Assembly (NCBI GenBank): GCA_046563655.1
Contig: JAJCTO010000010.1
Coordinates: 558,001-622,000, forward strand
Origin: Yuukianura sp. NJ FZ-2021
Taxonomy: Eukaryota
Reading direction: 5' to 3'
DNA length: 64,000 nt
Within the stretch, counting starts at the first letter, position 1. Every line of letters begins with the position of its first letter. The translations under genes were made by a program, and so were the position numbers. Shown here in pieces: positions 39,477 to 64,000 of the stretch. The notes under the pieces were generated by a model that was not told the origin of the DNA, did no database searches, and saw nothing but the letters and a program-made list of their open reading frames with translations.

Positions 39477-40533
39477 CAGTCCGCCCGGGCGACTTGTCTG
39501 AGTTTAAGCAGGAAATGACAACACTATGGCTTGAGGGCGGGCCCAATGTGTGGCAATGGCAAGTTTTGTCGACCAATCAAATGTCTCCATTTTCCGAGGC
39601 CACGCCCCCGATTGAAATGGTAAACGTTCATTTGCCAGAGCTATCGCGCCCCCAGTGTTGCGGCAAGTCTCGACCAATCAAATTGCTCCATTTCCTCGAG
39701 CCACGCCCACTTTTGAAATGCTCAAAGCTGATTGGCTCAAGAGACGGGCGACTAGTCACGCCCCCGAGCTAGCTGAACTCGGTTTGACCTTTGACCTTGA
39801 TGTTGTTTTGCAAAGTGAAAATTCAAATGGAATTGTACGTGCATGTGCACGGGCAAGTTGACCGGAAGTGGTTTGCGGTTTCTTTTGGCAGGCTAGCCGG
39901 AAGTGGTTTGCGGTTTGTTTTGGCAGTGGCCGAGTGGCACCCCACTAATCCTCTGACCAGCCGAATGTACCGCCCATGTACCATACTTGATCTTCTTGGT
40001 CCCGGGATCCCAGAAAAGGGCTCCCGGGACATTTCAATTTAAAAATGCTCGCTTGACCTTGAAAAAAATTGAAATGTTGTAAACAAGTTACATGAAATTG
40101 CAAATGGGGGCGCATGACCTGACGCAAATTCATATGCCAATGCAAAGGGCGCGCGTGACCTTGAAAAATTTGGCGTGACCTTGAAAAAATTGGCGTGACC
40201 TTGACATTTCAAGTTGGGGTAATTTGGGGAAATTTACCTTGAGTTTTGATTTCAATTTCCAAGTTTCAATACATTTTCCAATTTCTAAATTTCAGGAAAA
40301 AAATTTTTTTCAAAATTGATTTTTTTTTCAAAAATTGATTTTTTTTTCAAAAAATGATTTTTTAACAAAGAATTTCAATTTTGTGGTTTGGGGGAGGGGG
40401 GGCACGTGAGTTGGGGGTCACGTGGGGGGGGGGGGTGCGGAAGTGGGGGGGGTGACGTCATGTGCAAAACGTTTTACGCAGACGCGGCGGCCATCTTGGA
40501 TTTTTGGGAATTTCCTTACCACTGCCATTAGCT
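39477..40533 (-). repeat. Right TIR of mini-Polinton 2
   Basis: Inverted copy of 34481-35584. Confidence 0.93.
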
Positions 40534-44934: not shown

Positions 44935-45518
44935 CTAGAGTGGACATAAGGCATTTTTTCAACAAAATTTGTGAAGCATTTCTAAAGCGGAAAAAAAACC
45001 GTTTTCATCTTAAGTTTAAGCCAGGTTCACACAAACTATTAATTGCAGGTGTCATTTTTTAAAACTTCGAAAATTATTCGCGAATTCACGACAAAGTTAA
45101 ATCTAGGGTTTTGTTTTTCAGAAAAACTATCAACTATAATCTGTGATTCTGGAAAATGCGACTAGTAGTGGTGTGGACGTAGATAGTAACTATAAGATTA
45201 GTTAATTTAACGTTTAAATTTACTTTAGCTTTGTTGAAGTACTTGAAACTATTTGGAAGTAGGGTAGATTTTATTTTACAGCAGAGTTTAAATTGGAAAA
45301 TTGGAAATACTCTGGATCTAACACTACTGACCTCTGAAAATTACAGTTTTGTTACATACAAGTGTTACGAACAGTAGTTGGATTTAGCTTAACGGTTTCC
45401 TTCTGGCAATGTAATGAAACCTAATCTTACAGTATTGTCTAATGACCAAGCGAAATTTTTATCGAATTTGTAGTTGATTAAGATATTTAAATGTAATTTT
45501 ATTCAAATCATCTGCGCG

Positions 45519-46290
45519 TGTAACGCCGGATTTCGAGCCACCTCCAAATCAATCAATTGATCTGGAGTTGGGCCGAATTCGGACGCTTAATTAAGTTAAG
45601 ACAAAACTAGTTAAAACCAGTTAAGAGACATGTCGAGTATGCAGATTGATAATTAAGGGAAGTTTTGAAATTGAGACAGGAGGTCTCAAGACTTATGATA
45701 AGAAAAAGGTGATTTGACAAGTCCTTTGGACTTGTCATGTAAAACAACTTGCTCAGCAAGTTTGACATCTGTCAAACATGGGGTGTCCACTCGCAAGAGA
45801 GTTGATTCTCCCATTCAAAATCCCTGTTTATCAATTTGCATAGGATCGTAACTTTGTGCAATCTTGGACATTAATGACAAAGCAGGATCATAGATCCTGG
45901 TCATTAACGTCCAACTTTGAACTCAGGTCGCTAAGCGTCCCTCAGTTGAAGGACAAGCTGGGTCAAGAGTAAGGTTATAAATATAAGTAACAACTTGTTA
46001 GCGTTAAGTCATTTTTGAATTAGCTTTTGGGGAAGCATCTCTCTCTCTCTCTCTCAGGTCAGTTTGACTAGATTATAAAGTCGCTCTTTAGAATAAGTCT
46101 TTTGGGGAACAATAAACACTCTTCCTGGGAATTCTCTCCGCCGTTCGTCAATTCTTCATCTTCGAAGCTTGCATATCTGCCACCGTCACTTCCGCTGATT
46201 CTGCTGTTCAGGGTTCTACTGGTGTCAACCGTAGCTGACCAAGGTAAGGGAATCTTCCCTTCTCATACATGATTTAATAAGGGTAGCTAG
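45519..46290 (+). repeat. 5' LTR (minimum extent; 3' end not resolvable)
   Basis: Matches 63238-64000 with scattered substitutions and a CT-repeat indel. TATAAATA at ~45975, AATAAA at ~46110. Confidence 0.92.
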
Positions 46291-48380
46291 ACGAGCATAT
46301 TGAGACACCTAGGTGATGTGGGTCGGGTGGGACCGGCCCCACCTAAAGAGTAGAAGGTAGGGTAGGGAGTGGGACTGAAGTACGGTCCACTCAGGTCATT
46401 GAGCTAACTAGAATCCAGGGACCCAGAGGGGTCAAGTTTTCAGGTCAATTAGGGTGGGACGGGTGTTAAACCCGCTATGCTGTTGCAATTAGCTGTTTGG
46501 TTGTTTTCAGAGGACAATCAAGGGATAGTATTCGTGTTAGGTTAACGTAACAATGGAGTTCAAAAATCACCCTGTTTCAATGGAGGTTCTACTGAGATCC
46601 TTCTGTAAAGTCCCTAGATTCACTTAAGGTCAAGCGAGGTCAACTAGAATAACGTTTAACATAACGTCTAGAGAAAGCAGTTCTTAGAATTTGAAACTCG
46701 CTTTTGGCGGGAAAATTTGAATCTGAAAATTTTTACTATTTGCAAGGGTGGGCCTATAGCCCACAGCCTAAATGGCAAGTCCTCTTTCACATTTCTGAAG
46801 AACTTTTGAAGAATGACTTTTGGCGCGAAAATTTAAATTTTGAAAATTTAAAGTAAGATGTATAGATGAACATCAAGTCTTATCTTCTTGCAGTTCAGTA
46901 GTCAGTTCTAAGCAAAATTTTTAAAGTTTCATGTGTTACATCTAAAGTTTCTCCCATTTTATAATTCTGTTTTTGCGAAAAGCCGAAAATAGTGCAAATT
47001 TTAGCAAACTCATATTTCATAAAATTCTCAGCTGATTTGAATTCATTTCAACGAAGTACAATTGCATAACGTCTGATTAATCCCTGAAGAAGTCATAATA
47101 AGTTAATCAACTACTATACAAGTTTCATTGCATAAAATTGTGAACAGAATTTCGGCGCGAACACTCAAAATTTAAACTAGTAGAATTCACGCATGGACTT
47201 ACATTTCAATTTTATTCAAATGACAAATTCTTGAATTTCGAATTAAGTTTCAATTGAAAATTAAAATTTATCTTTTCATTTAGTGTCTTTTCAAACATAG
47301 ACAGGATTAACGTAAATTCGCATTTAGAAAAAGGCTTTTTGACGTTATGACCTCTCTTGACCTCAACAGTTTTTGGTATAGGAGTAACTATACCCCTACA
47401 ATGTAATCATCCACTGATCTCGCACAAGTTTTTAAGACTGAATTTGAAATAATGACAGAAACCCGTTTAACTTTCTTCTGTTTCTTTCTTCTCAAAGCTT
47501 TCACTTCATAATTAAAGAGTAGAGTGGAAGGGGGGAACCCTTCCCACAGTTAGTCGACACTTAAGTAGAGTGAAGGGAGGAGCCTTCGCTCAATTAGCAA
47601 AGATTTAGAAATGACTTCGTCACGAGGGAGGATAGACCTCGTGACTATGTAGTACTGTTTAAGGACAATAGCTTTAGGTCTGAGTCCTCGTAAGGACTTG
47701 ATGCTTCCCGCCTTTAGGGACAAGTCGGGGTCAAGAGGTAGACCCTTAGCAACTGGTGTATGTTTGACCGGGGTCATGGTATTTGGCGAGAATGCCCCAT
47801 GACTGCTCTTAGTCGAAGGATAATCCGAACGCTTGCGGACGCTGGAGTCGCGACCAGCCGAAACTTGTTATTAGGTAGGACATAAGCTAGAATCTAGACA
47901 ACAGGATACCGCGCTAGGTCCGGAGGTGGCGAAGGTTCCGCCTGAGACCGATGGGCTTAGCATAGTTAAAATCAGGGAAAAGGTCAAGTCTCTGCAGCTG
48001 TTCCTTAGAGCACTAGTGATGCGAAGGGGCGGGGTACCACAGCCCCTCTGAAGAATGGCTTTAGAAATTTTCATAGAGTTGTCGTCAACTCAAGGTCAGA
48101 TCCCAGTCCATGGAGCATCATGCCCGGACCTAGCCAGTCCGATAGGCCATCTATCTCACTGATGATGTCACACAAGTTGACAAATACACCCCATGCTCAA
48201 GGAAGGGAGCATTATTGTAATTTACCTCGAGATTTTGGACTGGGAGGGGACTGAACCTACTGCAGGAGAGCTTGTCAGGGTGTTAGGGACTAGCATTAAG
48301 TAGGCCCTACCTTCATGAAATGAAGGAGGAGTATTAACTCCATACACAACCTTCCAGGAAGAGGAAAACAGCAGAGAAGG

Positions 48381-49760
48381 ATGTCTCTCTACGTTTTGCT
48401 GTTAATTACATTGACGCTGATGGCGGAAGGATCCGTGCTCACGAGAGAGGACGATGGAGCCATCCGATGCTGGGAGGAAGACCCACTTGATAGTCTTAGG
48501 ACAAAGCGTCATGTGTTCAATACGAGGATGTGGAAAACGTTCCAACTAGGATGGACTTTAGAGGACGTACCCTCGGAGATCCGAAAAGCCGACGTCCTTA
48601 CTGATATTAAGCTAGCGTTCCAGAGATGGAATGAGATTTCAAATTTCACATTTATGAATAAGCCAGGTGACTCAACTGCAGAGATCCAAATTAAGTTTGC
48701 TAAGTTTGATCATAACGACTCAAAACCATTTGACGCTGAGCGTGGTATCCTAGGCCATGCCTTCTATCACAGTGAAGGGATAGGAGGAGATGTGCATTTA
48801 GATGCATCTGAAAAATGGGCTACAGGTCACAATGCCTCTGGCATTAACTTATACACCGTAATGTTACACGAAGTAGGTCATGCCCTGGGGCTTGTCCATA
48901 CTTCGGAGAATAGTTCCATCATGTTCCCATGGTATAAGATAAGGGACCCCCAACTAAACTTGAGCATAGTAGACAAACAAGCTCTTGAGCGACTCTACGA
49001 GCAGGCTCACTTGATCCTACAAATCGATGCCGAAAAGAAGGAAGTCCAACAGCAGCTGTACCGAGCCGTGAGTTCAAGACCCATAGAACACGCTTATCAT
49101 TTAAGTAGCATCTACTTCCTATTTCAAGGATTTGGACATTACCAAGTAGAAAGAACTGGGAAACTTAGTTATCCTAGATTTGTTATCAATCATCAATATT
49201 TTCAATATTTTCCTGAAAATATCCGAATCGAGAGGATCTTCCCATTCGATGGACATCTCTACATTTTTGCCAATGGAAAATACTGGAAATACTTCTCCAA
49301 CACCATCTTAGACAAAGGGTACCCAGCTGACACAAGGGAACTAGGAATTTCCACTCCAATTACTGGAGTCATAACGCAGAGACGTACATTGTACTTACAA
49401 GTAAATGGCACATGGCTAGGTTACTACCACTCTCAGGGGAAACTGTTTCCTCAAGATAAAGTTCATAACCCTGTACAGTTGAGTGAGGTGCATGCACCTG
49501 TTGTAAGCATAAATGAGCATCACCTGGGCTTTTATTCTTTAGAACGGAGTCTTATCATGGAATACGATTGGAATTTCCGACTCCACAGATACTATAAGCT
49601 AGCTAAGTTTCTCGGAATTGACTGTGAACCTAGTTCAGGCGATCTGACTGCTGAGGTAGCAGAGATCGGAGCACTTACATGGGCATTTTTCGGTGTCATG
49701 ATAATTTTCTCACTGATAGCAGTGACAATTATCTTTAATTCTATCCATTGTGATGAATAA
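48381..49760 (+). CDS. Membrane-type matrix metalloproteinase (M10A) with hemopexin-like domain, intronless, inside the retroelement
   Basis: Signal peptide; RC...D remnant plus RTKR furin site; HNDSKPFDAERGILGHAF; GGDVHLDASEKW; zinc motif HEVGHALGLVH; Met-turn SIMFPWY; hemopexin-like DGHLYIFANGKYWKY..KGYP; C-terminal transmembrane helix. Confidence 0.93.
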   Translation: MSLYVLLLITLTLMAEGSVLTREDDGAIRCWEEDPLDSLRTKRHVFNTRMWKTFQLGWTLEDVPSEIRKADVLTDIKLAFQRWNEISNFTFMNKPGDSTAEIQIKFAKFDHNDSKPFDAERGILGHAFYHSEGIGGDVHLDASEKWATGHNASGINLYTVMLHEVGHALGLVHTSENSSIMFPWYKIRDPQLNLSIVDKQALERLYEQAHLILQIDAEKKEVQQQLYRAVSSRPIEHAYHLSSIYFLFQGFGHYQVERTGKLSYPRFVINHQYFQYFPENIRIERIFPFDGHLYIFANGKYWKYFSNTILDKGYPADTRELGISTPITGVITQRRTLYLQVNGTWLGYYHSQGKLFPQDKVHNPVQLSEVHAPVVSINEHHLGFYSLERSLIMEYDWNFRLHRYYKLAKFLGIDCEPSSGDLTAEVAEIGALTWAFFGVMIIFSLIAVTIIFNSIHCDE

Positions 49761-49850
49761 AATCCAAGAATTTATTTTCTGGTTTAGGATCTATACCTAA
49801 AGTTGTATGTATATAATTTGCTTAAGGTATTACGCCCGTTTCAAAAGGGC

Positions 49851-50252
49851 ATGAGTACTGGTGATTCCGGATCGGGGAAAAAGAGGGATCGAGGAACACC
49901 AGAATTTTCATTCACTGCATTGGATTCGGTGTTAAAGGACAATCGGTCCAAGTCGAAGTCGCCTAAGAATCGAGAGGAGGAAATTGCTTCAGGCACGCAA
50001 GCAGGGTCCAGCACCAGTCCAACGAATCCAGAGATCAGGGCCATACCGGAGGTAGTGGTTGTCCAACCTCCATCCAACCCAACGATCATAGTGAAGGACG
50101 AGCGTGTGGCAAGGAAAAGCCAGCACACAGCTAAGGCCGCGAAGGCTGACAGGTCAGATCGTCCTATTCTTATTCCAAATCCTACTCAGGAAAGAGGTAG
50201 TCTCCGTAATGACTTAAGTTTGATTTATCCGGCACTATCCAAGGCGACATGA
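49851..50252 (+). CDS. ORF0 upstream of gag (disordered, S/P/K-rich); its stop overlaps the gag ATG (ATGA)
   Basis: ATG at 49851, with an ATGA overlap at 50249-50252. Confidence 0.45.
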   Translation: MSTGDSGSGKKRDRGTPEFSFTALDSVLKDNRSKSKSPKNREEEIASGTQAGSSTSPTNPEIRAIPEVVVVQPPSNPTIIVKDERVARKSQHTAKAAKADRSDRPILIPNPTQERGSLRNDLSLIYPALSKAT

Positions 50253-51368
50253 GTGATCCAAATAATACTGGTGCAGGGGCTCCGGGTGGGAGTACCCCTG
50301 GTCCTGTGGCATTAGTGGCACCAGGTGGAACCGGGAACGTGTTTGTTTCGGTGTGGAACCCACCTGGTGATCCCATCTTCGAAGGAAAACGGGGATCCCA
50401 AGCCACGAATTTCATGCAAACTTTCAAAGCAGTTGCTGCTACGCAACACTGGGATGACACTGCGAAGGTCACCCATTTTCCTCTCTATCTCACCAAGTAC
50501 GCTAAGACTTGGTGGCTGAACTACTGTACAGACTGTAAAAGGGATCCAGCCAACATTGATGACGATGGCGAAGTGTTGCCTTTGTCGTGGCCTAAAATTG
50601 AGGCAGCTTTTAAGTTGGACTTCAAGTCCAGGCTTACCGAAGACGCCCTTGAGCATAAACTTGCTCAAATGCGGCGCGGAAAGAATGGTCCGTATCGAGG
50701 AGTACTGTAGTAACATTATGCGGTTGTGCGATCAGTTAGACAAAAGTCTGGGAACCGTCATGAAGGACGAAAAACGGGTTAAATACTTATTGAAGGGTCT
50801 TGGGCAGGAGGAAAGTCATGAGGTCTTTCTCCGACAGCCCAAGACTCCTAAGGATGTTATTGATTTCTTGATCCAAAAGGAGGACTACGAATTTATGATG
50901 GACAGAAAGAAAGATTCTAGTAGCCAGAAAAGGATGGTAGCTAGGTTCAACGCTATGGGGATCGAGGAAGGTCAAGAAGATTCCAACACCAGCGGAAAGG
51001 ACTCACGTCCTCGCGGGGGTTACCGCGGTAGCTGGAACAGGGGAAATAACCGTGGATACGGTAAAGCCGGACATGGATACTCCCGTGGTGGAGGGGGGTC
51101 CAAGAGGGACGATTCCAACGGTAACCGGGGTAGTGGTTCTCGGAATACACAAGGTTCATCCCGAGGACGTTGGAACAACCGCGGTGGTCGTGGATCAGGG
51201 CGACCCCGTGAAGCCGATAGAAAAACTCATCTTGTTGACGGTACTCCCATAGAATGCTGGACATGTGGAGAGAATCACCGCCGAGTTGACTGTCCAAAAC
51301 ACAACAAACGACCATCGGCAAACGCTACTCCGCCTACTGTTCCGGAAAACTCCACTGCACGTCAGTAG
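50249..51368 (+). pseudogene. gag (capsid plus CCHC nucleocapsid), one frameshift at ~50690
   Basis: PIFEG, W..AKV..FPLYL..AKTWW, SWPKIEAAF, IEEYC, VKYLLKGL, an RG-rich region and CWTCGENHRRVDC. Confidence 0.88.
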
Positions 51369-51400
51369 GGGGAGCTGACGTCATTCTTTCATGTCCCCCT
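51344..51400 (+). other. -1 ribosomal frameshift signal (gag-pol)
   Basis: G_GAA_AAC slippery site in the gag frame, 8-nt spacer, stem ACGTCAG/CTGACGT with loop AGGGGGA complementary to TCCCCCT (51394-51400). The -1 frame is open into pol. Confidence 0.8.
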
Positions 51401-54400
51401 TTTCACCAAAACGAAACATTAAATGAACCAACTATCAATTCCATGCAACTCGATGTTAATGATTCCAAACTCCGAGGAAATTTCATTACCCCAATTTTTA
51501 TTAACGAATCTGGCACACTTTTTCGAAAAACTTGTTTAATTGACAACGGAGCTTCTGTTAGCATCGTTACAAAACATAACGTTGAAACATTTGACAAATT
51601 AAGCCAACCTTTCAAAATAAAATTAGCCAATGACAGCCATGTCAAAATTTTAGGCACTTCCAGAATTAGAGTTCAGTTCACCCGCACCAAGGATGAATTC
51701 TTTGATTGGGATTTCTTTGTCATAGATAAAAGTTTTGTGGATTTCATTATTGGATTAGATTTTCAAGCGGCCAATTTAATGCAGTACCGGCTGCTTAATC
51801 CCAACGGTTTAGCAGAATTCCAATTTCAGGGAATGTGTCACCCTAAACGTCTTAACGTTTTCCCTTCCACAGGAACTAAAACAATTCTGAATTCAGTCAA
51901 GGTGGAAGGAAGTAATTTGTGCAAAAAGAATCATCCATCCACACCTAAAGTCTTGACAGTAGAAGAGGTAGTTCTTCCACCGTTCGCCACCACTCAGGTA
52001 AAAGTATCTCCTGTCAATATGATTAGTGGAACTTTAGCATTTGAACCTAATGGAACTGGACTTGACAAATTGGGCATTTGCATTCCTCATTTAGCCCATA
52101 TTCCAGAAGGGGAATTCCTTATTCCAGTCGATAATCCAAGACCAGTTCCTGTGACACTTTACAGAGGTGTAAATGTCGGATGGATTAGCCGAGTTATAGT
52201 TAGAGATTCGCAACCGGAAGAAGAAATTCGAGCAGCTCGTTTTAAATCAACTCGGGAAAATATAGACTCCATCGATATCAATCCAGAATTAGATCCTGGG
52301 CAGAGACAACAATTGAGAGAACTCATCTTAGAGTACGGAGATGTCTTTGCTTTCAATTTGGACCAGCTAGGGAAAGCTAAGGATGTTAGTTTCCGGATTG
52401 ACACTGGAGATGCACTTCCTGTAAGTTGCCCTCCATACAAGAAATCCCCAGTTGAAAAGAAAATTATAGAAAAGGAAGTCGAAACACTGTTAAATGCGGG
52501 CATTATTCGGGAGAGTCAATCACGTTGGTCCGCAGGAGTCTCTTTAGTAAGAAAACAAAATAGTGACAAGTTTAGAATGTGCGTTGATTGGAGACGCCTC
52601 AAGTGAGCTCTTAGCATCATTCAACGGAGCCAAATATTTTAGCGTAATGGATTTGATGTCAGGTTACTTTCAATTACCCATCCATCCTGACGACGTGGAG
52701 AAAACCAGCTTTGTAACACACACAGGAGCGTATGAATATCTCTTTGTAGGTTTCGGCCTAACAAACGCCCCAGCAGCATTTTCTGCCTTTCTCAAAACAG
52801 TACTGGGTAATCTGCTGCATTCCATTGCCACTGCATACCTAGACGATGTATGTTGTTACAGTAAAGACTTTCCGAGTCATTTGAGCAATCTGAGAAAAGT
52901 TTTTGAACAATTTCGTACATATAATTTGACTCTCCAACCACCAAAATGTCATTTCGGACAGACTAAAATTGAACTCCTAGGTCACATCATTTCAAGGGAA
53001 GGGGTTTCAGTTAATCCAAATAAAGTTAGTGCCATTTCCAAGATGCCTCCTCCTACCAACATCGGGGAGATCCGAACTTTCTTAGGAATGGCGGGATACT
53101 ATAGGAGATTCATTTTGAATTACAGTCTTATAGCAGCTCCACTGACTTCTTTGACTTAGAAAAATGCAGCTTTCAAATGGGATTTAGAACAACAACAAGC
53201 ATTTGACACGCTACGAGAAAAACTAACTTCGGCTCCAATCCTCACATTCTTCAACGAGAATGCAGACTTAGAACTCCATACTGATGCTTCTAACAAGGGT
53301 ATAGGAGCAGTACTCAATCAGCGGGACCCAGATGGCGTCCTGCGAGTAGTAGTTTACGCCAGTCGAACGTATCGTGGCGCCGAGGAACGCTACAACACTA
53401 GCGAGCAGGAAGCTCTAGCTGTTGTTTGGGGTCTGGACAAGTTTAGGGAATTTATAGGCTTCAAGGGCATTACTATTGTCGTAGATCATCATGCACTATG
53501 CTACTTGAAAACATGTAAAAATCTTAGAAACAGTCGTCTTGCTCGTTGGGCCTTGCGACTTCAGGATGTTGTTTATGAAATTAAACACATCAATGGTAAA
53601 AGCCATGTCCAGGCAGACTGTTTAAGCAGATTTCCTATATCTGAACCAGAAGGTGAAAAGAAATTCATCGATGATTTTCCCACTACATGGTATAGTATGC
53701 AGTTAGTAACTCCAGTAGAATATACGGAGAATCTGGCTCAGGAGCAAATGAAAGACAGGAAATTAGAGACTATCATTCAATCTCTCCATGCAGGAAAAAC
53801 TAAATACTGTACATCTTTTGACTATTCCGAGGATCTTTTAAAATTTATTTGCAAACAGACGAAACAATATTTGCCAGTCATACCAGCTCACTTGGTAGAC
53901 TGTGCCATTCCACGTTTCCATGATGATACATTGGCTGGACACCTTGGTATCGCCAGGACTATCGCCAGAATTCGACAAAGTATTTTCTTTTTCAAAATGG
54001 AAAAACGTGTAACGTCATACATTAGACATTGTCCGACGTGTCAACTAAGAAAGTCTAAAAATGTGAAGCCTTACGGCTTCTTGACGCCGATTGACATCAG
54101 CTCTCTTGCTCTGTTTGACAAGTGCAGTATTGATGTCATAGGCCCTCTGAACAGAACCAAGCGAGGGAATCGCTATATTGTTGTCCTAGTTGAATTCGTA
54201 TCGAGATACATTTTTGCTAAAGCAATACCCGAAAATACCACCAAAGAGATGATCTCATTTCTGACTGAGATAATTCAAACCCACGGAGTTTTCAAAACTC
54301 TTCTTTCTGACAATGCTAGTACTTTTCAATCCTCATTCTTTAAAGAGTTCAACAAATTGATTGGGATTACCAATCTGTACTCTACTCCGTATCACAGCAG

Positions 54401-55262
54401 GACCAACGGTTTAGTCGAGCGTACCAACCGAAGCCTCGAGGAGGTACTTACTAATTATGTCTCCAGCACCCAGCGTGATTGGGACAAATATTTAGGGTCT
54501 GCTGTTTACAGCCTAAATACAGCCGTCCATAAGGACAGCTCAGGACTTAGCAGTTACTACATTCTCCATGGACGGAATCCACTACATCCTATGGACGTCG
54601 CTTTGGACACCGTCAAGGACGCCGTTGAAATTCCGACGCGTATCCAACGCATGGAAGCAGCACGGAAAGCTGCACAAGCTGGACTTCGGAAAGCCCAGGC
54701 AAGGCAGGCGAGGTTGTTCGACCCGGGTCGCCAACCCTTCGAATTTAAGGTCGGTGACCTAGTACTCCTTAAAGTACATAAAACAAAACCAGGGATAAGC
54801 CGCAAACTCGCCATGCGGTTTAAAGGCCCCTACATCGTGATTGGGAGGAAATCCTCTCTCTCTTATTATTGTCGGTTGCGGGACGCAGATCCCGACTCTA
54901 AGCTCACTCGAGTCCACATTGAGAACATGAAAGCGTTTCATGAATCCGACATGTCGTACGTAACAACGGCTGCTTCAGGAGTAGCAGCAGATCAAGTTGG
55001 GGAAGGGCATGATAAGCCCACACCCGGAATTTTTTTCGACCTCCCGGTCACAGAAAAAGAGATTAGTGAAACTGTCAACGATGACGCCGAGGTTGACTCT
55101 GAGGTCGACAGTGACGTCGGCCAAGTATCAACTGATGAGGACATTTCCTCAGAAGAAGAAGAAATTAGTAAGGCCAACGTGGCCGACGAAAAAGCAAAAG
55201 AACCCGAGATAGTGACGCGCTCAGGAAGAGTTGTCAGAAAGCCTGTGAGGTTCTTGTCATAA
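51344..55262 (+). pseudogene. pol (protease, RT, RNase H, integrase), with a deletion/frameshift at ~52603 and a TAG at 53157
   Basis: LIDNGAS; RMCVDWR, DLMSGYFQ, FGLTNAP, YLDD; TDASNKGIGA, EQEALA, DHHAL; GHLG..RT, CPTCQ, IDVIGP, SDNA, GLVERTN and FKGPY. Confidence 0.93.
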
Positions 55263-55385
55263 GACGCACCACTAATTAACTACTCATATAGGATTATGGA
55301 GGCGGGAAATTAGGTAGTTAAGGTAGTTAAGTGGTAGGACAGCTTCAGAATATTTAGGAACTTTTCATTCCCCTAGAAAAGAAAA

Positions 55386-57542
55386 ATGGCGGCGATCTAC
55401 GCCTCAATAACTCTTCTTCTACTCACCCCTGTCGCTGCATACGAAATAATACCAAAACAAGTACGAGTGACCACTGGAGCCTTAATCCGAGAGGTCAAGA
55501 ACGTAGAGTTGTACTCATCAAGCGTCCCCTTGATCTATGATGTCATGGCAAATTTCTCGGAATTACCAAAGGGCATCCTAACCCCCAAACGTTGCCAATC
55601 AGGACAAAACTGCGTGTTTCCGCTCGCGATGCGACCGTATGTTGAACATGTCACCGATGTGATGCAAAAGATAATCGAGGACTTAATGATGAGTCCATCC
55701 AAAACCACGACCCGGCAGAAACGTTTCAGCATAGACGACTACAACCCGTTGACATGGATTGGTGACCTTTACTCCATATGCTGTGGCGTAGCTTCTAAAC
55801 GAGATCTGAAGGAATATCAAGTCGATTCTCAGAAGGTACAACAATTCATGGAATCAATCAAAAGAGCTGTGGTCACTTCAGACCAAAACATAATCACAGT
55901 AAAGGATAGTTACGAGTTGTTTCGAAGTAACATCTCCAGGTTCATGAATCGTATTCATGACAACATCCAAACGTTGTACGCTGAGCAGTTGAACGTTACT
56001 ATTCTTGAAACGCAGCTGGAACAACGCGTTGAAGAAGCATTCGAAGAATTGGACTTCCAACGAAGAGGATTTGTTCAAATCTACAACCACATAAACGCCA
56101 TCACCGAGATCATCCGATTCAAAGATCTCCAAGACCACTGTAGGTCCCAGACAATCCCTTTGTTAGCAATCCAACCGAAGAAGCTGCAAAGAGACTTGAG
56201 AAGTATCAGGAGGCTCATCAACAAGGATGGTTACGATCTTGTTGTCCCAGAGACCGAAATCTCTAAGTACTACAAACTAAAGATCGCAGATTGTGTCACA
56301 ACTACCGAAGGGAGAATTATCTTCCAACTACGCATTCCAATCAGAAAAACTGAAGATGATTGGCAACTACATGAGATGGTCAATATTCCCTTCAGCTATC
56401 GGGGAAGCACATGTATCATCCAGCACGCCCCAACTTACTTAGCTACAAGTAAGAATAACCTGGTAACAATCCAAGGAACCCAACTCCACCAATGTCAACC
56501 GGACACAGGACTCTGTAAAATCCCGAACTTCAACTCCGATCCGTTATCCGGGTACCTTTGCGCACAAAGGTTGTTGCGAGGAGCTAGCGTTCAAGAGCTC
56601 AACCAGGTCTGTTTATTCGAGTGCCTCGCGGATCAAAACGAATTCGCGATAACACAGTTGGACTATCATACATTCATTCTGACCGGTGCTCCCGAAGGGA
56701 TGGCCGTACATTGTGGAACAGAAGATGCCGACCGAATCTATCCACTGAGAGTCCCCGCTGACGGTATCGGAAGTATCGAAGTACAGTTGCCATGCGATTG
56801 TCAACTAGTCATCCCAGGAAGAATGCCAGTCCGACCACCTTATCCTTGTCCAACAGGACCTATCACCTACCCTAAGGTTAATATAGTCATACCAGCGATG
56901 ATGTCAAAGGTCGATTTGTTACTAAAGGCAACAGAATCTCGAGACTCAAAGGAGTCCACCATTTTTCCTAGCATCGAGTCCGTCTTCAACGAGACATGGG
57001 AGTTAGACTCTCCAAAACTAAACCTCACGGAGGTCACGCAGCTAAAGACACTGATTGTTCCCCAATTGGTAGCCAAAATGGCCCCATCAAGCAACACTGC
57101 ACTAATAATATGGAACGTTCTGATGAGCCTAGTGTTAGCTTTTCTCTTCTACCGTGAAATCAGCCGGCATGGAGGTTACATGCTAGGTTTTCCTATGTTA
57201 GGAGGACAGTTCGGCCAGGCCCAAGCAACTGCCGAAGTCCACGAACACCATGCCTGGAACTTAGGAATCACTCTACTATTAATTTTGGTCTTCGTGGTAT
57301 TTTTTATGTTTGGATACGCATACGCGATCTATATGCGACGCAAGAGCGGCCGAAATTGGCCAAGCGGTGAGATCAGGGCAGATGGAACTGACCTCGACCA
57401 ATTTGAGAAAGGAGGACGAACCTCATTCCATTCACCACTCAAAATCCAGGTCGTCCAGGCGATGGACACCATTCAGGAGGAAGAAGAGGAAAGAGTTACT
57501 TCCGACAGTGACAGCGCTTCGGAAGAACAGGAGGAATTGTAA
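55386..57542 (+). CDS. env-like class I fusion glycoprotein (baculovirus F/errantivirus-like), intact
   Basis: Signal peptide, RQKR furin site followed by a hydrophobic fusion-peptide-like segment, heptad region, Cys-rich ectodomain with N-glycan sequons, and C-terminal hydrophobic helices. Confidence 0.85.
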   Translation: MAAIYASITLLLLTPVAAYEIIPKQVRVTTGALIREVKNVELYSSSVPLIYDVMANFSELPKGILTPKRCQSGQNCVFPLAMRPYVEHVTDVMQKIIEDLMMSPSKTTTRQKRFSIDDYNPLTWIGDLYSICCGVASKRDLKEYQVDSQKVQQFMESIKRAVVTSDQNIITVKDSYELFRSNISRFMNRIHDNIQTLYAEQLNVTILETQLEQRVEEAFEELDFQRRGFVQIYNHINAITEIIRFKDLQDHCRSQTIPLLAIQPKKLQRDLRSIRRLINKDGYDLVVPETEISKYYKLKIADCVTTTEGRIIFQLRIPIRKTEDDWQLHEMVNIPFSYRGSTCIIQHAPTYLATSKNNLVTIQGTQLHQCQPDTGLCKIPNFNSDPLSGYLCAQRLLRGASVQELNQVCLFECLADQNEFAITQLDYHTFILTGAPEGMAVHCGTEDADRIYPLRVPADGIGSIEVQLPCDCQLVIPGRMPVRPPYPCPTGPITYPKVNIVIPAMMSKVDLLLKATESRDSKESTIFPSIESVFNETWELDSPKLNLTEVTQLKTLIVPQLVAKMAPSSNTALIIWNVLMSLVLAFLFYREISRHGGYMLGFPMLGGQFGQAQATAEVHEHHAWNLGITLLLILVFVVFFMFGYAYAIYMRRKSGRNWPSGEIRADGTDLDQFEKGGRTSFHSPLKIQVVQAMDTIQEEEEERVTSDSDSASEEQEEL

Positions 57543-57930
57543 TTTTCCTCACAAGAAAAGATAGTAATAGTGATTAGCATTAGTTAAGCTGTTAAAATTA
57601 ACAATACCTAATTACTAAAACCTGATAAAAAGTTCAACACTAGTTCATAAGTACACTGAATTTCACCAAATGCGGGAGCTACAATGATAGACATTCAACC
57701 GATAAATTTTCAAAAAATAATTATAACTACCAGAAAATATAACTAGGTGTTTTAAGCCATGCGCAAGAAGATGTGGTAGTATTCTGGATAGGAATGTTTT
57801 ACATGCCGCTGTAGTTTAACTGGAAAATAACTATCGTAATCCCTAGCTCACAAGGAAGTTAGCCTAATTAACAATTAGTAAGAAGAATCAAAAACTTTAG
57901 TAAACGAGTTAGGAACTCTATTACGTTTAG

Positions 57931-58200
57931 ATGCCGCGTAGCTGTACTTGGTGTGGCCGGCCGAATTCCGGTGGAAAACCAAGAACGCGTTTGTTAAAAC
58001 CCGACTCGTTAAACCAGGAACTCCGTATTCCAATGGAACACTTCTGGATGGAGTTCTGCGGAGGATGCCAGAAGAAGGCAATGTGCGAACTTGAGGAAGG
58101 AGACACCCTTCGATTTTACATGGACTATCGCGTCAACCCAAGTTGCGCACTTTCCGCGTCTTACAAAGACAAACCTTTAAAATATAACCCAAAGAAATAA
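57931..58200 (+). CDS. Small CxxC...CxxC putative zinc-binding accessory protein
   Basis: CTWC and CGGC motifs in an ATG-initiated 89-aa ORF. Confidence 0.45.
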   Translation: MPRSCTWCGRPNSGGKPRTRLLKPDSLNQELRIPMEHFWMEFCGGCQKKAMCELEEGDTLRFYMDYRVNPSCALSASYKDKPLKYNPKK

Positions 58201-58339
58201 GCATACAAGCAGCGCATCTATTTTGAAGATTAGTAGATAGTACTCAGGAGTAGCAGGCTAGAATAGTAAAATAAATAGAACTTTGTAAAACAATAGACTA
58301 AAAACACGTCATTTTCAGAATTCAGAATTCTAAAAACTC

Positions 58340-59143
58340 ATGTCAGTGAACGGACTTCACAACCTGCCAGCTGGATTCATAGACGCAGTTCGAGAAAGAA
58401 ACCAACCAAATCAGCGGTACGAGAGAGCGAGATTTCTCGCCTCGAGGAGTGTAATCGAGCTGGGTCTCCTCAAAGACTGTTTTCCCGAACTAAAGGAACT
58501 GATAGACAGCTTGGTCAAGACTACTAAACTCGCGTGGAAACCACTGATCAACAAGCTAGAAATCTGGATTTGGGAAGATCCACGCTCTACTTATAGGTAC
58601 CAGCTGACTCACTGCAGACACGAGCTAATCTGCAGATTCGCCCAGATTAGAATCGATCGATTCCCGCTAACTCTTGTGTCATTCGTCCGACACTGTGAAG
58701 GAATACTTGATCTTGGGATCAAGACAGACGAGTTCCTGCGACTTGGCTTACAGGAAAAGCTCGAACTAACTCACTTCACCACCATACACATCACTCGTCA
58801 GCCAGGAGCTCCACTAACCGATTTCCGGACCGACAGTCTGATATTAGCTGTAACTCGACGACCCTACCGACCATACTGCTTCCGAGACTTGGCCGACATC
58901 CTTCACTGCAACGGAGGACGGAGGGAAGAAGTAAAGTACTTCTTCAGCCTTTACGAAACAGAGAAAATCATCTACTGGAGCACACTGTCCGAACGCCAAG
59001 TCCAACGCCGAGAGAAGACAAAGGAGACTCAGGAACGCAGAGGGTTGAGTACAGACGACCAACTCATCGACGAAATTTGTGTCGCAGGCGACGCTTACGC
59101 CGAGACTTGTGACGACTACTTGGAGTCAGATAAGGAAAACTAG
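58340..59143 (+). CDS. Accessory protein of unknown family ('ORF-X1'), paralog of 60623-61357
   Basis: Shares FP.L..F, PY.F..LA, RE..., IY and RRGL..D...D blocks with ORF-X2. Confidence 0.7.
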   Translation: MSVNGLHNLPAGFIDAVRERNQPNQRYERARFLASRSVIELGLLKDCFPELKELIDSLVKTTKLAWKPLINKLEIWIWEDPRSTYRYQLTHCRHELICRFAQIRIDRFPLTLVSFVRHCEGILDLGIKTDEFLRLGLQEKLELTHFTTIHITRQPGAPLTDFRTDSLILAVTRRPYRPYCFRDLADILHCNGGRREEVKYFFSLYETEKIIYWSTLSERQVQRREKTKETQERRGLSTDDQLIDEICVAGDAYAETCDDYLESDKEN

Positions 59144-59166
59144 TTTCATTTCATTTTCCTTTCAAA

Positions 59167-59742
59167 ATGGCTTACTTTGAGCCCATAGAGTTCACTTTAC
59201 ACTCTCCAGACGCCAAGGCACCTCACTGGGGGGAAGCCCATGAGGCTGGCCTTACTATTTACACTTCCGCAGATTATGACATTTCGCCAGGAGACCGTTG
59301 TGTTGTTTCCACCGGAATCGCCTTGCGCATTCCGTTAGGACTTTTCGGAAGAATAACTTCTATTTACAGACATACGCTTAGTCATGGAATAACCGTTGCC
59401 CCAGAGGTCATGGAAGGGGGTACAATATCAGGCATTTGCAAAATAACGATTTTCAACCATGGCAAGAAATCTTTCCACCTAAGAAAAGGTGATGCAATTG
59501 CGCAGGTCACGTGCGAAAAATTCTACAAACCGGAGATCAAGGACAAACCCTTAGGGTTTTACTACCACGCTGAAGACGATGACAAATGGCATATTAACTA
59601 TCAAGCAAATGAGGTCTTTCTTCGTCAGCCGAAAACTCCTCAAGATGTCGTTGACATTCTCATTCAAAAAGAAGACTACCAATTTATGATGAACAGGAAG
59701 CAGGACTCCACTTCCCTTCGACAACCGCTGCTCCAGGAGTAG
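59167..59742 (+). CDS. dUTPase-fold protein with degenerate catalytic motifs, fused to a gag-derived segment
   Basis: SPDAKAP, AGLTIY, VSTGIALRIP.G.FGRI, IFNHG..F..KGDAIAQ. The AGxD, RSG and GxID motifs are lost. Confidence 0.8.
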   Translation: MAYFEPIEFTLHSPDAKAPHWGEAHEAGLTIYTSADYDISPGDRCVVSTGIALRIPLGLFGRITSIYRHTLSHGITVAPEVMEGGTISGICKITIFNHGKKSFHLRKGDAIAQVTCEKFYKPEIKDKPLGFYYHAEDDDKWHINYQANEVFLRQPKTPQDVVDILIQKEDYQFMMNRKQDSTSLRQPLLQE

Positions 59743-60622: not shown

Positions 60623-61357
60623 TTGGAACCATCCAGGAGAATATACAGCCACGATCACATGAGCTGCGTTACGCAGAAACCTGGAGCCATCCAACTAAAC
60701 GAGTTACCAGAGCTTGCACTAGGTAAGATTTTCCAGTTCTGCTGTCTACAGGACATAAGCAACATCACGGAGGTTTTTCCAAGTCTATTAACGTTTGTAG
60801 AAGCAACAAAAAGAGAAGTTCGCGCAAAACAAAAATTTATATTTGATAACGTTGTTGTACTAAAACCAGGATATAATATTGGGATACTAAAAGTTGATCA
60901 TGATAGTCAAACTAAAATAGAAAACTTCCTATCAAACGTACCACTTAACGCATTTCCTGTCGCGCTAAGCCAATTTATCTTAGACTTCAATCAACCCATT
61001 CAACTTCACTGGCAAGCTGTAGTAACCTTCTCTCCAGAAGAATTAGAAAAAGTATTGCGCAAATTTAGAGACGAGTTTTATAGTTTCCGAGAATACTGTA
61101 CGTTTGTTCCGATCGGTCCAAGACCAAAACCATACCGTTTTCAAACGTTAGCTAAACAAATCCGTCTTTACACAAACGACAGAGAGGACCTAGCGTCTCA
61201 TTTAGAAAAGATATATGCTGAGGAACTTCCGATTTACTTAGCTGGATTCACTGTCGCTCAACGCAGAGCACGAAAACGCGCTAGGAGACATTATATACGG
61301 CGTGGATTGGAAGTAACGGACGAGTGGCTAGATATTGCACTCTGGGAATTCCTTTAA
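60623..61357 (+). CDS. Accessory protein ORF-X2 with an N-terminal F-box-like motif
   Basis: LNELPELALGKIFQFCCLQDISNITEV matches the F-box pattern LxxLPxxxLxxIFxxLxxxDLxxxxxV. First ATG is at ~60659. Confidence 0.65.
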   Translation: MEPSRRIYSHDHMSCVTQKPGAIQLNELPELALGKIFQFCCLQDISNITEVFPSLLTFVEATKREVRAKQKFIFDNVVVLKPGYNIGILKVDHDSQTKIENFLSNVPLNAFPVALSQFILDFNQPIQLHWQAVVTFSPEELEKVLRKFRDEFYSFREYCTFVPIGPRPKPYRFQTLAKQIRLYTNDREDLASHLEKIYAEELPIYLAGFTVAQRRARKRARRHYIRRGLEVTDEWLDIALWEFL

Positions 61358-61396
61358 AAACAAAGGGAGAAGCGATTTCAGTAAATAACATCGAGA

Positions 61397-63237: not shown

Positions 63238-64000
63238 TGTAACGCCGGATTTCGAGCCACCTCCAAATCAATCAATTGATTTGGAGTTGGGCCGAATTCG
63301 GACGCTTAATTAAGTTAAGACAAAACTAGTTAAAACCGGGTAAGAGACATGTCGAGTATGCAGATTGATAATTAAGGAAAGTTTTGAAATTGAGACAGGA
63401 GGTCTCAAGACTTTTGATAAGAAAAAGGTGATTTGACAAGTCCTTTGGACTTGTCATGTAAAACAACTTGCTCAGCAAGTTTGACATCTGTCAAACATGG
63501 GGTGTCCACTCGCAAGAGAGTTGATTCTCCCATTCAAAATCCCTGTTTATCAATTTGCATAGGATCGTAACTTAGTTCAATCTTGGACTTTAATGACAGA
63601 ACAGGATCATAGATCCTGGTCATTAACGTCCAACTTTGAACTCAGGTCGCTAAGCGTCCCTCAGTTGAAGGACAAGCTGGGTCAAGAGTAAGGTTATAAA
63701 TATAAGTAACAACTTGTTAGCGTTAAGTCATTTTTGAATTAGCTTTTGGGGAAGCATCTCTCTCTTAGATCAGTTGACTAGATTGTAAAGTTGCTCTTTA
63801 GAATAAGTCTTTTTGGGAACAATAAACACTCTTCCTGGGAATTCTCTCCACCGATCGTCAATTCCTCGTCTTCGAAGCTTGCACATCTGCCACCGTCACT
63901 TCCGCTGATTCTGCTGTTCAGGGTTCAACTGGTGTCAACCGTAACTGACCAAGGTAATTGAATCTTCCCTTCTCATACATGATTTAATAAGGGTAGCTAG
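63238..64000 (+). repeat. 3' LTR, truncated by the window end
   Basis: Direct repeat of 45519-46290, preceded by AAGTTGGGGAATAA (PPT-like). Confidence 0.92.

Follow-up and report, generated by a model that had tools for sequence, protein, structure and literature searches.

In invertebrates, the counterpart of retroviruses is found in the Ty3/gypsy elements that bear an env gene. It is well established that LTR elements and retroviruses can transduce genes, and several retroviral genomes hold an extra gene, as is the case for sag in the LTR of MMTV, the cyclin of walleye dermal sarcoma virus and v-onc. The matrix metalloproteinase (MMP) described here resembles such accessory or transduced genes in being an extra open reading frame (ORF) within an LTR-bounded genome, besides gag, pol and env. 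No accessory or transduced gene of retroviruses known to us codes for an extracellular protease, or is located in a Ty3/gypsy-type element between the LTR and gag.

Metazoan env-carrying Ty3/gypsy 'errantiviruses' have been described (Chary & Hayashi, eLife 2026, PMC13524379). As the main text of that study presents them, they share with the element of the window (the whole 64-kb stretch of DNA analysed here) the LTRs, gag, a PR-RT-RH-INT pol, a downstream env and the organisation in multi-copy families in animal genomes, and their env resembles that of the window in its signal peptide, furin-type site and membrane anchor. The window element differs from them by an MMP upstream of gag, by a much greater length (at least 18.5 kb) and by four further ORFs after env, two of which are dUTPase-like. 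Neither 'metalloprotein' nor 'metalloprotease' occurs in the main text of the study.

The LTR retrotransposons of bdelloid rotifers captured GDSL esterase/lipase, DEDDy exonuclease, dUTPase and env-like genes, with catalytic residues kept (Rodriguez, Kenefick & Arkhipova, Viruses 2017, PMC5408684). In the body of that article they resemble the window element by the combination of extra enzyme and env-like genes, and by the retention of invariant catalytic residues. The placement is different: the bdelloid captured ORFs lie downstream of pol (ORF3) and the dUTPase within pol, whereas the window enzyme, predicted to be extracellular, lies 5′ of gag. No metalloproteinase appears among the bdelloid captured ORFs, and 'metallo' has no occurrence in the body of the article.

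The granulovirus MMP, 'mp-nase', has been proposed to degrade the basement membrane and to aid systemic spread, according to the relevant part of PMC4500397. The statement of the initial annotation that some insect DNA viruses carry MMPs agrees with this proposal and with the 128 matrixin relatives recovered from IMG/VR contigs (22-41% identity over segments of at least 60 residues; the contigs that carry the best of them measure 100-230 kb). Granulovirus (betabaculovirus) and other large-DNA-virus matrixins share the complete HExxHxxGxxH with the window MMP, but the carrier is there a large dsDNA virus and here a retroelement. Our literature search found no description of an MMP in any LTR retroelement, as the initial annotation had supposed. 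The finding thus falls under accessory-gene capture by env-bearing Ty3/gypsy elements, a known process, and the MMP as captured gene is apparently new.

We consider it fairly probable that the window holds an old copy, by now decayed in part, of a multi-copy endogenous retrovirus family of Ty3/gypsy type that bears an env and whose genome includes an MMP accessory gene upstream of gag. Its features are collected in Table 1.

Table 1. Features of the element in the window (window positions; all on the + strand)
Feature	Position	Strand	Basis or remark
5′ LTR, proven part	45519..46290	+	starts TGTAACGCC; alignment to 3′ LTR
LTR remainder and/or long non-coding leader	46291..48380	+	three TTTGGCGCGAAA-like repeats
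MMP ORF	48381..49760	+	ATG 48381, stop 49760, 459 aa; Pfam, PDB sequence, AF2, fold comparison
gag region	49851..51368	+	three reading frames: 49788-50252, 50213-50710, 50520-51368; zinc-knuckle-like CWTCGENHRRVDC
pol, PR-RT-RNaseH-INT	51290..55262	+	Pfam, ORF reading
env-like ORF	55386..57542	+	open, 718 aa
Small Cys-rich ORF, 89 aa	57931..58200	+	downstream of env
ORF of 267 aa, no known family	58340..59143	+	no Pfam match
dUTPase-like ORF 1	59167..59742	+	PF00692, E 4.7e-14
ORF of 232 aa, no known family	60659..61357	+	no Pfam match
dUTPase-like ORF 2, 294 aa	61397..62281	+	PF00692, E 9.8e-10
3′ LTR, reaching window end	63238..64000	+	alignment to 5′ LTR

Organisation of the element

The two LTRs are 95.855% identical over 772 columns, and the 3′ copy is still aligned at the window end, so that the length of the element is given as at least 18.48 kb. 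For the same reason, as the 3′ LTR runs off the window, the end of the 5′ LTR before 48381 is an assumption, under which the MMP is likely placed between the 5′ LTR and gag. The terminal inverted-repeat scan, with 30 matches where shuffles lead one to expect 30.3, yields weak candidates for the 3′ end of the 5′ LTR, at ~46552 and ~46940. Between the proven LTR part and the MMP (46291-48380) there is no ORF of at least 110 aa and no Rfam match, a single sub-threshold snoRNA match being found overall; we detected no tRNA genes. A purine-rich GGGGAATAA stands just 5′ of the 3′ LTR.

These data bear on a different placement, in which the MMP would lie inside an unusually long LTR of more than 4 kb, as sag does in the MMTV LTR, would be present twice per element, and would have the LTR polyadenylation signal at its stop codon. 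Indeed, the 3′ LTR leaves the window after 763 nt still aligned, leaving the LTR length without an upper bound, an AATAAA overlaps the MMP stop codon with gag beginning 90 nt downstream, and a T-arm-based pattern for the primer binding site (14 matches against 8.7 expected) has no match in 46291-49850, which includes the whole of 46291-48380. We nevertheless regard this placement as very unlikely. Near 49760-49850 nothing pairs with the LTR start as a terminal inverted repeat, the two candidates mentioned above being better though weak, and the sequence after the MMP stop has no initial TGG next to a CA end. Moreover, by eye, a TATA-like box (~45977) and an AATAAA (~46111) are already present in the proven LTR part. 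The depth in one run of the second organism (X2) also differs, with 18.6 and 18.5 in the proven LTR bins against 6.7, 0.39 and 10.3 over 46269-48170, depth being distinct from copy number.

The gag region gives a Retrotrans_gag match under the Pfam cut-off (E 3.5e-4, 21.2 bits, cut-off 24.1). In pol, the Pfam domains follow in the order Peptidase_A3 (E 7.8e-5), RVT_1 (8.8e-22), RT_RNaseH (3.9e-31), Integrase_H2C2 (3.2e-16) and rve (1.4e-8); judged by this domain order, the element is of Ty3/gypsy (Metaviridae) type; it also bears an env. In the window copy, pol loses its frame near 52600 and meets an in-frame stop at 53157-53159; in the contig comparison, extra letters appear at 52602 in other copies, which also have a sense codon in place of the stop. 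The window copy is dead for gag-pol, and the MMP and env ORFs are open. We also looked at pol relatives as a guide to the clade and set them aside: there were 1009 matches, and each of the 120 listed was a chimeric gene model from the genome of a single pseudoscorpion, at ~27-38% identity.

The env protein has a signal peptide; after an RQKR at aa 110-113 comes a hydrophobic stretch, and two hydrophobic segments lie at the C-terminus. It has three homologues of 717-740 aa (52, 49 and 38% identity), and none of the four members matches Pfam. Its language-model features are nearest to the Baculo_F and Gypsy env clusters (0.94-0.95), with recognition below the usual level, and serve as a lead only; neither Pfam nor AF2 gave homology to F, the AF2 model being unusable (pLDDT 38.6). 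No env relatives were found in viral contigs. A metagenome contig, L001, repeats the order pol, env, small ORF, and the window's small Cys-rich ORF has its counterpart, likewise after env, in L001 5047-5316 (42% identity, 91 aligned residues). As L001 comes without its 5′ part, it does not show an MMP in relatives. The env-related metagenome proteins are without a detectable MMP partner, as the databases hold no MMP relative above 44% identity.

Downstream of the small ORF, the 267-aa and 232-aa ORFs have no detectable similarity to each other, and the two dUTPase-like ORFs are 25% identical over 113 residues (E 2.7e-7). The C-terminal end of dUTPase-like ORF 1 enters a patch of sequence duplicated from gag and the C-terminus of INT: 59609-59708 is 78% identical to 50818-50917, and 59721-59764 is 91% identical to 54963-55006. 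One contig of run X1 starts at 59608, beside this patch.

The initial annotation had described an element of more than 18 kb with MMP and env intact and with the MMP between the 5′ LTR and gag. The length agrees with that given by the LTR pair. 'Intact' is right for the MMP and env ORFs, to which the annotation applies it; it could not be said of gag, which is spread over three frames, or of pol. As to the position, the MMP does lie inside the LTR pair and upstream of gag, and the end of the LTR ahead of it is likely.

The metalloproteinase and its relatives

The 459 codons of the MMP ORF read through without stop or frame break. From N- to C-terminus the protein consists of a signal peptide, a mini-propeptide, a furin site, a matrixin domain, a linker helix, hemopexin-like blades and an anchor. 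The matrixin catalytic domain (aa 51-206) matches PF00413 with E 3.9e-43 and 147.5 bits (cut-off 24), covering profile positions 2-158 of 159. In a 36-row alignment the ORF has the expected residue in each of the 14 invariant columns (W83, H126, A127, H139, E144, H163, E164, G166, H167, G170, H173, M181, D198, Y206), the zinc site HEVGHALGLVH (HExxHxxGxxH) and the Met-turn are complete, and the structural-metal ligands are present, H126 and H139 being invariant and H111 and D113 nearly so. The ORF is thus, as judged from these motifs, a matrixin (MEROPS M10A, PF00413) with complete catalytic machinery, for which proteolysis is predicted.

The RTKR at aa 40-43 is the sole RX[KR]R of the protein, and its column coincides with the RxKR/RxRR furin sites of other MMPs. 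The propeptide is short, with ~26 residues from the signal peptide to RTKR. Opposite the cysteine switch PRCGxPD stands 'IRCWEEDP', in which R and C (Cys30) alone are retained, and no PG_binding_1 match was obtained with Pfam, so that a folded three-helix prodomain is not recognised. The hemopexin-like region spans aa ~237-410. Pfam finds there a single Hemopexin repeat, under its cut-off (E 1.5e-3, 18.9 bits, cut-off 21.3); the first hemopexin Cys is missing and C415 lines up with the last one. In the full-length AF2 model three beta blades are confident (237-357) and a fourth has pLDDT <50. The model ends with a hydrophobic helix (422-457) with 7 polar residues at its tail, of TM or GPI-signal type.

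Cellular MT-MMPs and the window MMP share the signal peptide, the RX[KR]R, the hemopexin-like region and a C-terminal hydrophobic anchor. Unlike MT-MMPs, the window MMP has no PG_binding-type prodomain, lacks the first hemopexin Cys, has an uncertain fourth blade, is intronless and lies inside a retroelement. With its furin site before the catalytic domain and its C-terminal anchor, it can be called a membrane-type MMP by architecture only. Most of the protein description given in the initial annotation therefore stands: the open, intronless 459-aa ORF with signal peptide, RTKR, HExGHxxGxxH and Met-turn is recovered alike by ORF reading, Pfam and alignment, and the prodomain is indeed reduced to a remnant that keeps its Cys. 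Three terms need to be narrowed. The hemopexin-like repeats are upheld in part, by three blades in the AF2 model, with one sub-cut-off repeat, a low-confidence fourth blade and an absent first Cys to be set against them; the 'TM anchor' is a hydrophobic helix compatible with TM and GPI signals alike; and 'membrane-type' describes the architecture, the tree giving no supported link to MT-MMPs.

Structural comparison places the catalytic domain among MMPs. The AF2 model has pLDDT >90 over residues 50-200, and its fold aligns with MMP-8, -12 and -13 with Z 24-25 and rmsd 1.2-1.5 A over 155-162 residues (VIA). The best Foldseek matches are full-length MMP-13, -1 and -12 (E 1e-22 to 3e-20). Among PDB sequences, 103 have E <=1e-10; the 60 shown are all MMPs or karilysin, with the MMP-20 catalytic domain at E 3.2e-31.

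The relatives are distant. An exhaustive search against 1.84 billion protein representatives gave 6050 matches, with best identities of 27-44% and no protein more than ~44% identical, and the top-scoring matches are gene models in which 2-3 MMP domains are fused. A word-index search gave 15 matches (best identity 29%). Ten more of the better matches (27-43%) include named ones from sea star, stick insects, sea anemone, amphioxus, cod and stork; they carry no taxonomic signal and were discarded as an indication of the source. A single-protein scan of viral contigs returned no close MMP relative.

The phylogeny that had been suggested for comparison with viral and cellular MMPs was built with FastTree on 193 catalytic domains, 39 of them from viral contigs, and gives no supported placement: no supported clade, cellular (MT-MMPs included) or viral, holds the element MMP. 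Its end branch is 1.24, with a warning for long-branch joining and a best identity of 41% over 137 columns. The five sequences nearest by path, on unsupported branches, are all cellular or metagenomic, and none is from the viral contigs. With the large-DNA-virus matrixins, at the identities given above, there is no supported grouping either; the window MMP, for its part, combines a furin site with a hemopexin-like region and a membrane anchor. By these searches no cellular or viral MMP known so far is closely related to it. As to a host or a viral origin, the tree supports neither, given the long branch and the absence of a supported clade.

Copies of the element in two organisms

The evidence for a family comes from alignments of assembled contigs from four public runs and two organisms, in which depth is not equal to copy number. 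The runs gave 314, 125, 793 and 635 contigs aligned to the window, in identity classes from >=99% to <90%. A contig of the second organism (X2 record 6, organism B, 7141 nt) spans 48615-50569, 50543-52602 and 52602-55687 with 39, 49 and 66 differences, and joins the MMP (codon 79 to end), gag and pol on one molecule at ~98% identity. In the first organism, X3 records 10 and 11 cover the MMP region at 85% and 95.6%. X3 record 12 (1785 nt) aligns from its position 1106 to gag 49846-50515 at ~83%; two MMP-region joints share depth 204.4, and this record is therefore apparently one diverged contig spanning MMP and gag. Since the MMP is joined to gag-pol in the second organism, and apparently also in a copy at ~83%, it is a gene of the family rather than a one-off retrocopy, as the initial annotation had anticipated; the contig at ~98% in the second organism and the copies diverged to 85% and 95.6% agree on this point. 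The 7.1-kb closed contig of run X2 has a joint 55687->48615, which we considered as an Env-MMP fusion and rejected: the joint is out of frame and gives no fusion protein.

These contigs also weigh on the idea that the MMP came from a host gene, from another element or from an assembly join, and came to stand between an LTR and an unrelated gag-pol-env. The 3.5 kb from the proven LTR part to gag is unusually long, and the recombination scar in the 3′ third shows the window copy to be rearranged elsewhere, both of which would fit such an event. However, the independent contig of the other organism has an unbroken MMP-gag-pol, contigs of the MMP region occur at several divergence levels with depths resembling those of pol, and the MMP ORF has neither flanking direct repeats nor a poly(A). 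We give this explanation hardly any credence.

Among the 40 listed of 2884 differences between copies, 25 are inside ORFs and 17 of these are synonymous. Four of the 40, which were chosen by the tool, fall in the MMP, and three of these four sites are synonymous. The sole non-synonymous one is private to the window copy and affects a position at least 90% conserved in MMPs, where the other copies encode the residue found in at least 90% of MMPs. In codon usage the MMP correlates with pol+env at r 0.68 and with the other ORFs of the window at 0.56, a difference that is not discriminating.

In the reading that we favour, the MMP would have been under purifying selection since its capture, as a gene of the element. 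It could instead be a passenger, that is, a host MMP cDNA which one ancestral element took up into its leader by transduction and which has since been copied along without use, open here by luck. The established transduction of genes by LTR elements and retroviruses makes such an origin plausible, and an intronless MMP with AATAAA at its stop and no folded prodomain is what a truncated cDNA might look like. The private change of the window MMP at a conserved position points the same way, and at 4% LTR divergence a 1.4-kb ORF left open by chance is, as an uncomputed estimate, not improbable. On the other hand, the MMP has at most 44% identity to 1.84 billion representatives and a long branch, yet its invariant residues, signal peptide, furin site and anchor are kept. 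Such divergence without decay argues for selection during its time in the element, an argument that fails if the host has a close cellular paralogue. The three synonymous changes of four and the lack of a poly(A) tract after the AATAAA also speak against a passenger, which we hold to be unlikely. Were it true, the MMP would still be a clean case of a host gene transduced, and carried over a long time, by an LTR element.

A last alternative is that the host keeps the MMP (and env) open at this insertion while gag-pol decays. The pattern of the window copy, with MMP and env open beside a gag with two frame changes and a pol with frame break and stop, is the one expected from such co-option. But two open ORFs of five are unremarkable at 4% LTR divergence, and it is the window MMP, not that of the other copies, that deviates at the conserved position. 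In addition, the rest of the window is repeat-rich, with LINE RT/endonuclease, integrase and zinc-finger fragments, and no host gene is recognisable in its 64 kb. Co-option at this locus thus seems most improbable.

Proposed role and expression of the MMP

For a family gene under selection, the following course may be proposed. The MMP would have been captured once as an intronless cDNA and would have lost the folded prodomain. The protein would enter the secretory pathway, where furin would cut at RTKR, and the mature enzyme would be displayed, next to the F-like Env, by the producing cell at its surface or by the particle in its envelope. Its cleavage of extracellular matrix, basal lamina or surface proteins could then let particles pass to a target tissue, for example the germline. 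That the MMP serves tissue-to-tissue passage of particles by matrix cleavage is, by analogy with the granulovirus MMP, a possibility that we put forward tentatively. A wider proposal, which we find rather doubtful, is that the window samples a lineage of complex, recently infectious invertebrate Ty3/gypsy retroviruses using an F-like Env and a furin-activated, anchored MMP to breach basal laminae (e.g. between soma and germline), in convergence with granuloviruses; the ~98% identity between copies in two organisms with different labels would in that case be due to a recent spread, possibly between species.

If true, a matrix protease encoded by the element and anchored at the surface would answer directly, and testably, how particles cross the matrix between tissues, and a basal-lamina-breaching MMP would be a solution so far unknown in any reverse-transcribing element. 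An extracellular enzyme would join the short list of LTR-retroelement accessory functions (env, dUTPase, esterase, exonuclease). It would also be the second independent adoption of an MMP by a virus-like agent, beside that of large insect DNA viruses.

The position of the MMP is awkward for translation, upstream of gag and ~2.3 kb from the likely transcription start. Its expression could proceed through a spliced subgenomic mRNA or from a promoter of its own in the 2-kb leader. The AATAAA overlapping the MMP stop could act as a polyadenylation signal and, if used, would truncate the genomic RNA. By eye, candidate splice sites are a donor-like GTAAGG at 46245 and an acceptor-like CCTTCCAG ending at 48357, the AG to which the donor would be joined; the repeat search further marks the leader repeats D1/D2.

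Organization of the element and its surroundings

A complete matrixin gene is carried in this genome by an LTR-bounded, env-bearing family of the Ty3/gypsy type. The copies of the bounding direct repeat start at 45519 and 63238, begin with TGTAACGCC and are 95.855% identical over 772 columns, in an alignment still continuing at the window end; a purine-rich tract precedes the 3′ copy. Between them come, in this order, a 2.1-kb stretch free of long ORFs, the matrix metalloproteinase (MMP) ORF, gag, pol, an env-like ORF, a Cys-rich ORF and four further ORFs, and the order of domains is that of Ty3/gypsy elements.

Features of the element and of the remaining window
Feature	Position	Strand	Description
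LINE-type element	16003-19503	-	Exo_endo_phos endonuclease ORF and RVT_1 reverse transcriptase ORF, E 7.2e-20
Integrase fragment	27710-28258		
MMP ORF	48381-49760	+	ATG to stop, 459 codons
gag region	between MMP and pol	+	weak Retrotrans_gag match, zinc-knuckle-like motif
pol		+	protease-RT-RNase H-integrase; RVT_1 8.8e-22, RT_RNaseH 3.9e-31, Integrase_H2C2 3.2e-16, rve 1.4e-8
env-like ORF	after pol	+	open, 718 aa
Cys-rich ORF	57931-58200	+	89 aa, directly after env
ORFs without known family	58340-59143, 60659-61357	+	one before each dUTPase-like ORF
dUTPase-like ORFs	59167-59742, 61397-62281	+	Pfam E 4.7e-14, 9.8e-10

The window copy is not intact and is dead. Its gag is distributed over three frames; within pol, the frame breaks near 52600 and an in-frame stop follows at 53157-53159. 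The break and the stop are private to this copy, since contigs from public runs have extra letters at the first site and a sense codon at the second. Over 79 nt (51290-51368) gag and pol are read in overlapping frames in a -1 relationship. No canonical slippery heptamer turned up in a pattern search; the overlap may reflect a programmed frameshift or decay. The two dUTPase-like ORFs, which lie downstream of env and not inside pol, share 25% identity. Where the first of them ends there is a patch (59609-59764) copied from gag 50818-50917 (78%) and from the integrase C-terminus 54963-55006 (91%); a run contig starts exactly at 59608, and depths shift there. This patch looks like a recombination scar, and copies of the element may therefore vary in their 3′ third.

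In the env-like protein, a signal peptide precedes an RQKR at residue 110, behind which runs a hydrophobic stretch; further hydrophobic segments lie towards the C-terminus. It has no Pfam match and its structural model (pLDDT 38.6) was too poor for use; its language-model features were nearest to the Baculo_F/Gypsy env clusters (0.95), which we treat as a lead. Three homologues were found, at 52, 49 and 38% identity. One lies on a 5.7-kb metagenome contig from a related element (L001), downstream of an open RT-RNaseH-integrase ORF and upstream of a small ORF (5047-5316 of that contig). The small ORF is 42% identical to our Cys-rich ORF, for an env that is only 52% identical, and the Cys-rich ORF is probably a real accessory gene.

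No host gene was recognised across the whole repeat-rich window. A 957-nt inverted repeat pair (34631-35584 and 39477-40429, 97.8% identical, about 3.9 kb apart) may have formed the two arms of a DNA transposon or foldback element. Likewise, 1.3-kb inverted arms at 2096-3338 and 7308-8593 (80% identical, about 4 kb apart), containing 115-nt tandem repeats at 3074-3418 and 7355-7574, may belong to another terminal-inverted-repeat element.

The MMP protein

The initial annotation had described an intact MMP with a signal peptide, an RTKR furin site, an HExGHxxGxxH motif, a Met-turn, hemopexin-like repeats and a TM anchor, and this picture of the protein proved correct, with reservations on the hemopexin part and on the term "membrane-type". 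Residues 51-206 match Matrixin (PF00413) with E 3.9e-43, scoring 147.5 bits where 24 is the threshold. In an alignment with 35 MMPs taken from searches, all 14 invariant columns are present in the ORF, among them H163-E164-x-x-H167-x-x-G170-x-x-H173, M181 of the Met-turn and the histidines that bind structural metal. Among solved structures, the catalytic domain of MMP-20 is nearest in sequence (E 3.2e-31). The AlphaFold2 model, built on the 36-row alignment, has pLDDT >90 across residues 50-200 and superposes about 158 residues on the catalytic domains of MMP-8, -12 and -13 (Z 24-25, rmsd 1.2-1.5 Å); the top Foldseek matches were full-length MMP-13, MMP-1 and MMP-12 (E 1e-22 to 3e-20).

The N-terminus forms a hydrophobic signal-like helix, separated by only about 26 residues from RTKR (40-43), the sole RX[KR]R of the protein, which in the alignment falls where furin-activated MMPs have their furin sites. 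Pfam gave no PG_binding_1 prodomain match in the ORF; an IRCWEEDP stretch aligns with the cysteine switch PRCGxPD, the Cys being kept. The C-terminal half is hemopexin-like and degenerate. The hemopexin assignment made earlier is confirmed in part: the model has three confident blades and a doubtful fourth, the one repeat found scores under the Pfam cut-off, and of the two cysteines that would close the domain the first is absent. A hydrophobic helix (422-457) followed by seven polar residues ends the protein; the term "membrane-type" describes this architecture and is no statement of kinship.

MMP across the family and signs of selection

Four public DNA runs carry the stretch, three from one organism A sample and one from organism B. 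The runs gave 314, 125, 793 and 635 contigs that match 45001-64000 with at least 80% likeness, at identities from at least 99% down to below 90%; their number and this spread indicate a multi-copy, diverged family. A single 7141-nt contig from organism B covers 48615-50569, 50543-52602 and 52602-55687 (39, 49 and 66 differences), so that a single molecule bears, at about 98% identity, gag, pol and all of MMP after codon 78. This independent contig is the main argument against nesting or an assembly artefact, which we hold to be very unlikely. In organism A, contigs over MMP alone were 85% (48492-49221) and 95.6% (48804-49325) identical, and a 1785-nt contig, from position 1106 onward, matches gag 49846-50515 with about 83% identity. 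Within MMP, two skips (48826 to 49158 and 49231 to 49354) have a depth of 204.4, exactly that of this contig, from which we infer a single diverged copy colinear from MMP to gag.

The MMP gene is real and family-wide: it is not confined to the window copy, MMP contigs occurring in both organisms, and a check for a duplication or poly(A) of its own found neither a poly(A) tract nor a flanking direct repeat. Host co-option at this locus appears very improbable.

The organism B contig is self-closing, 55687 joining 48615 out of frame, and has a depth of 278; the LTR, leader and 3′ part in that run are at 18 or less. The 7.1-kb unit, comprising MMP from codon 79, gag, pol and the first ~100 env codons, is high-copy and circular or tandem. 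It may exist as a tandem array or as an extrachromosomal circle, or its closure may be a loop made in assembly.

Only 40 of 2884 window-versus-run differences, chosen by the tool, were listed; 25 fall in ORFs, and 17 of these are synonymous (MMP 3/4, pol 9/14, env 3/3, the 267-aa ORF 1/1, the second dUTPase-like ORF 1/1, gag 0/2). The lone non-synonymous MMP difference is private to the window copy, at least 90% of the aligned MMPs and the other element copies sharing another residue. In so small a selected sample, these counts are weak evidence of selection. We judged the divergence of the protein a stronger argument. Among the best 150 matches listed from 1.84 billion protein representatives, identity was 27-44%; gene models in which two or three MMP domains are fused scored highest, and in the tree the MMP branch (length 1.24) has no supported neighbours. 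Such divergence, with all catalytic, structural, targeting and anchoring features kept, points indirectly to fast evolution under constraint within the retroelement, an argument that fails if the host has a close cellular MMP paralogue. We regard a selected accessory gene encoding an active MMP as reasonably probable, and transduction of a functionless passenger as rather unlikely.

Leader, expression and possible role of MMP

Since the 3′ LTR runs past the window end, the end of the 5′ LTR is not fixed from the window, and a terminal inverted repeat scan gave weak candidates (about 46552 and 46940) no better than chance. A pattern scan and a tRNA gene search recognised no primer binding site or tRNA gene. 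A TATA-like box and an AATAAA, read by eye, lie inside the proven LTR part, and for this reason we think that the LTR measures about 1-1.4 kb and is followed by a long leader with MMP in it; an LTR so long as to include MMP seems improbable.

The leader contains three TTTGGCGCGAAA-like repeats. A TTT(G/C)GCG(C/G)GAA-AATTT-like motif, present three times within 116-nt tandem units (at 46701-46849 and 47150-47187), resembles E2F-type sites; 46602-46820 is missing from some run copies, as contig joints show. By eye, a donor-like AAG|GTAAGG is found at 46244/46245 and an acceptor-like CCTTCCAG| ends 24 nt upstream of the MMP ATG. The stop codon of MMP shares nucleotides with an AATAAA. These signals suggest expression either by a spliced subgenomic mRNA or as a self-contained cassette.

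According to the available text of PMC13524379, env-carrying Ty3/gypsy elements are widespread among metazoans, and that of PMC5408684 describes rotifer LTR elements that have taken up enzymatic ORFs (GDSL esterase, DEDDy exonuclease, dUTPase). Both these and our element show accessory-enzyme capture, but MMP is a new type of gene and its position here is unusual. The terms "metalloprotein", "metalloprotease" and "metallo" are absent from the main texts of the two papers, and in the main texts of the open literature we found no description of an MMP in an LTR retroelement. Accessory-gene capture by env-bearing LTR retroelements is already known, MMP as the captured gene being new as far as searched.

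By established MMP biology, the protein would enter the secretory pathway, be activated by furin at RTKR and be displayed on the cell surface by its C-terminal anchor; with a mini-propeptide around Cys30, latency may be slight or absent. It could then open the extracellular matrix or basal lamina and let enveloped particles enter new tissues, by analogy with the granulovirus MMP, which has been proposed, in the available text of PMC4500397, to break down basement membrane and so serve systemic infection. The earlier interpretation is upheld as to a complete matrixin gene in an env-bearing family; a role in spread through matrix, proposed by analogy, seems possible but less likely than not. The enzyme might instead act on other substrates, for example surface or immune proteins of the host, or Env. 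Matrixins are also found in large DNA viruses: in IMG/VR, 128 of 602 pattern matches were relatives, and contigs of 100-230 kb carried the best of them.
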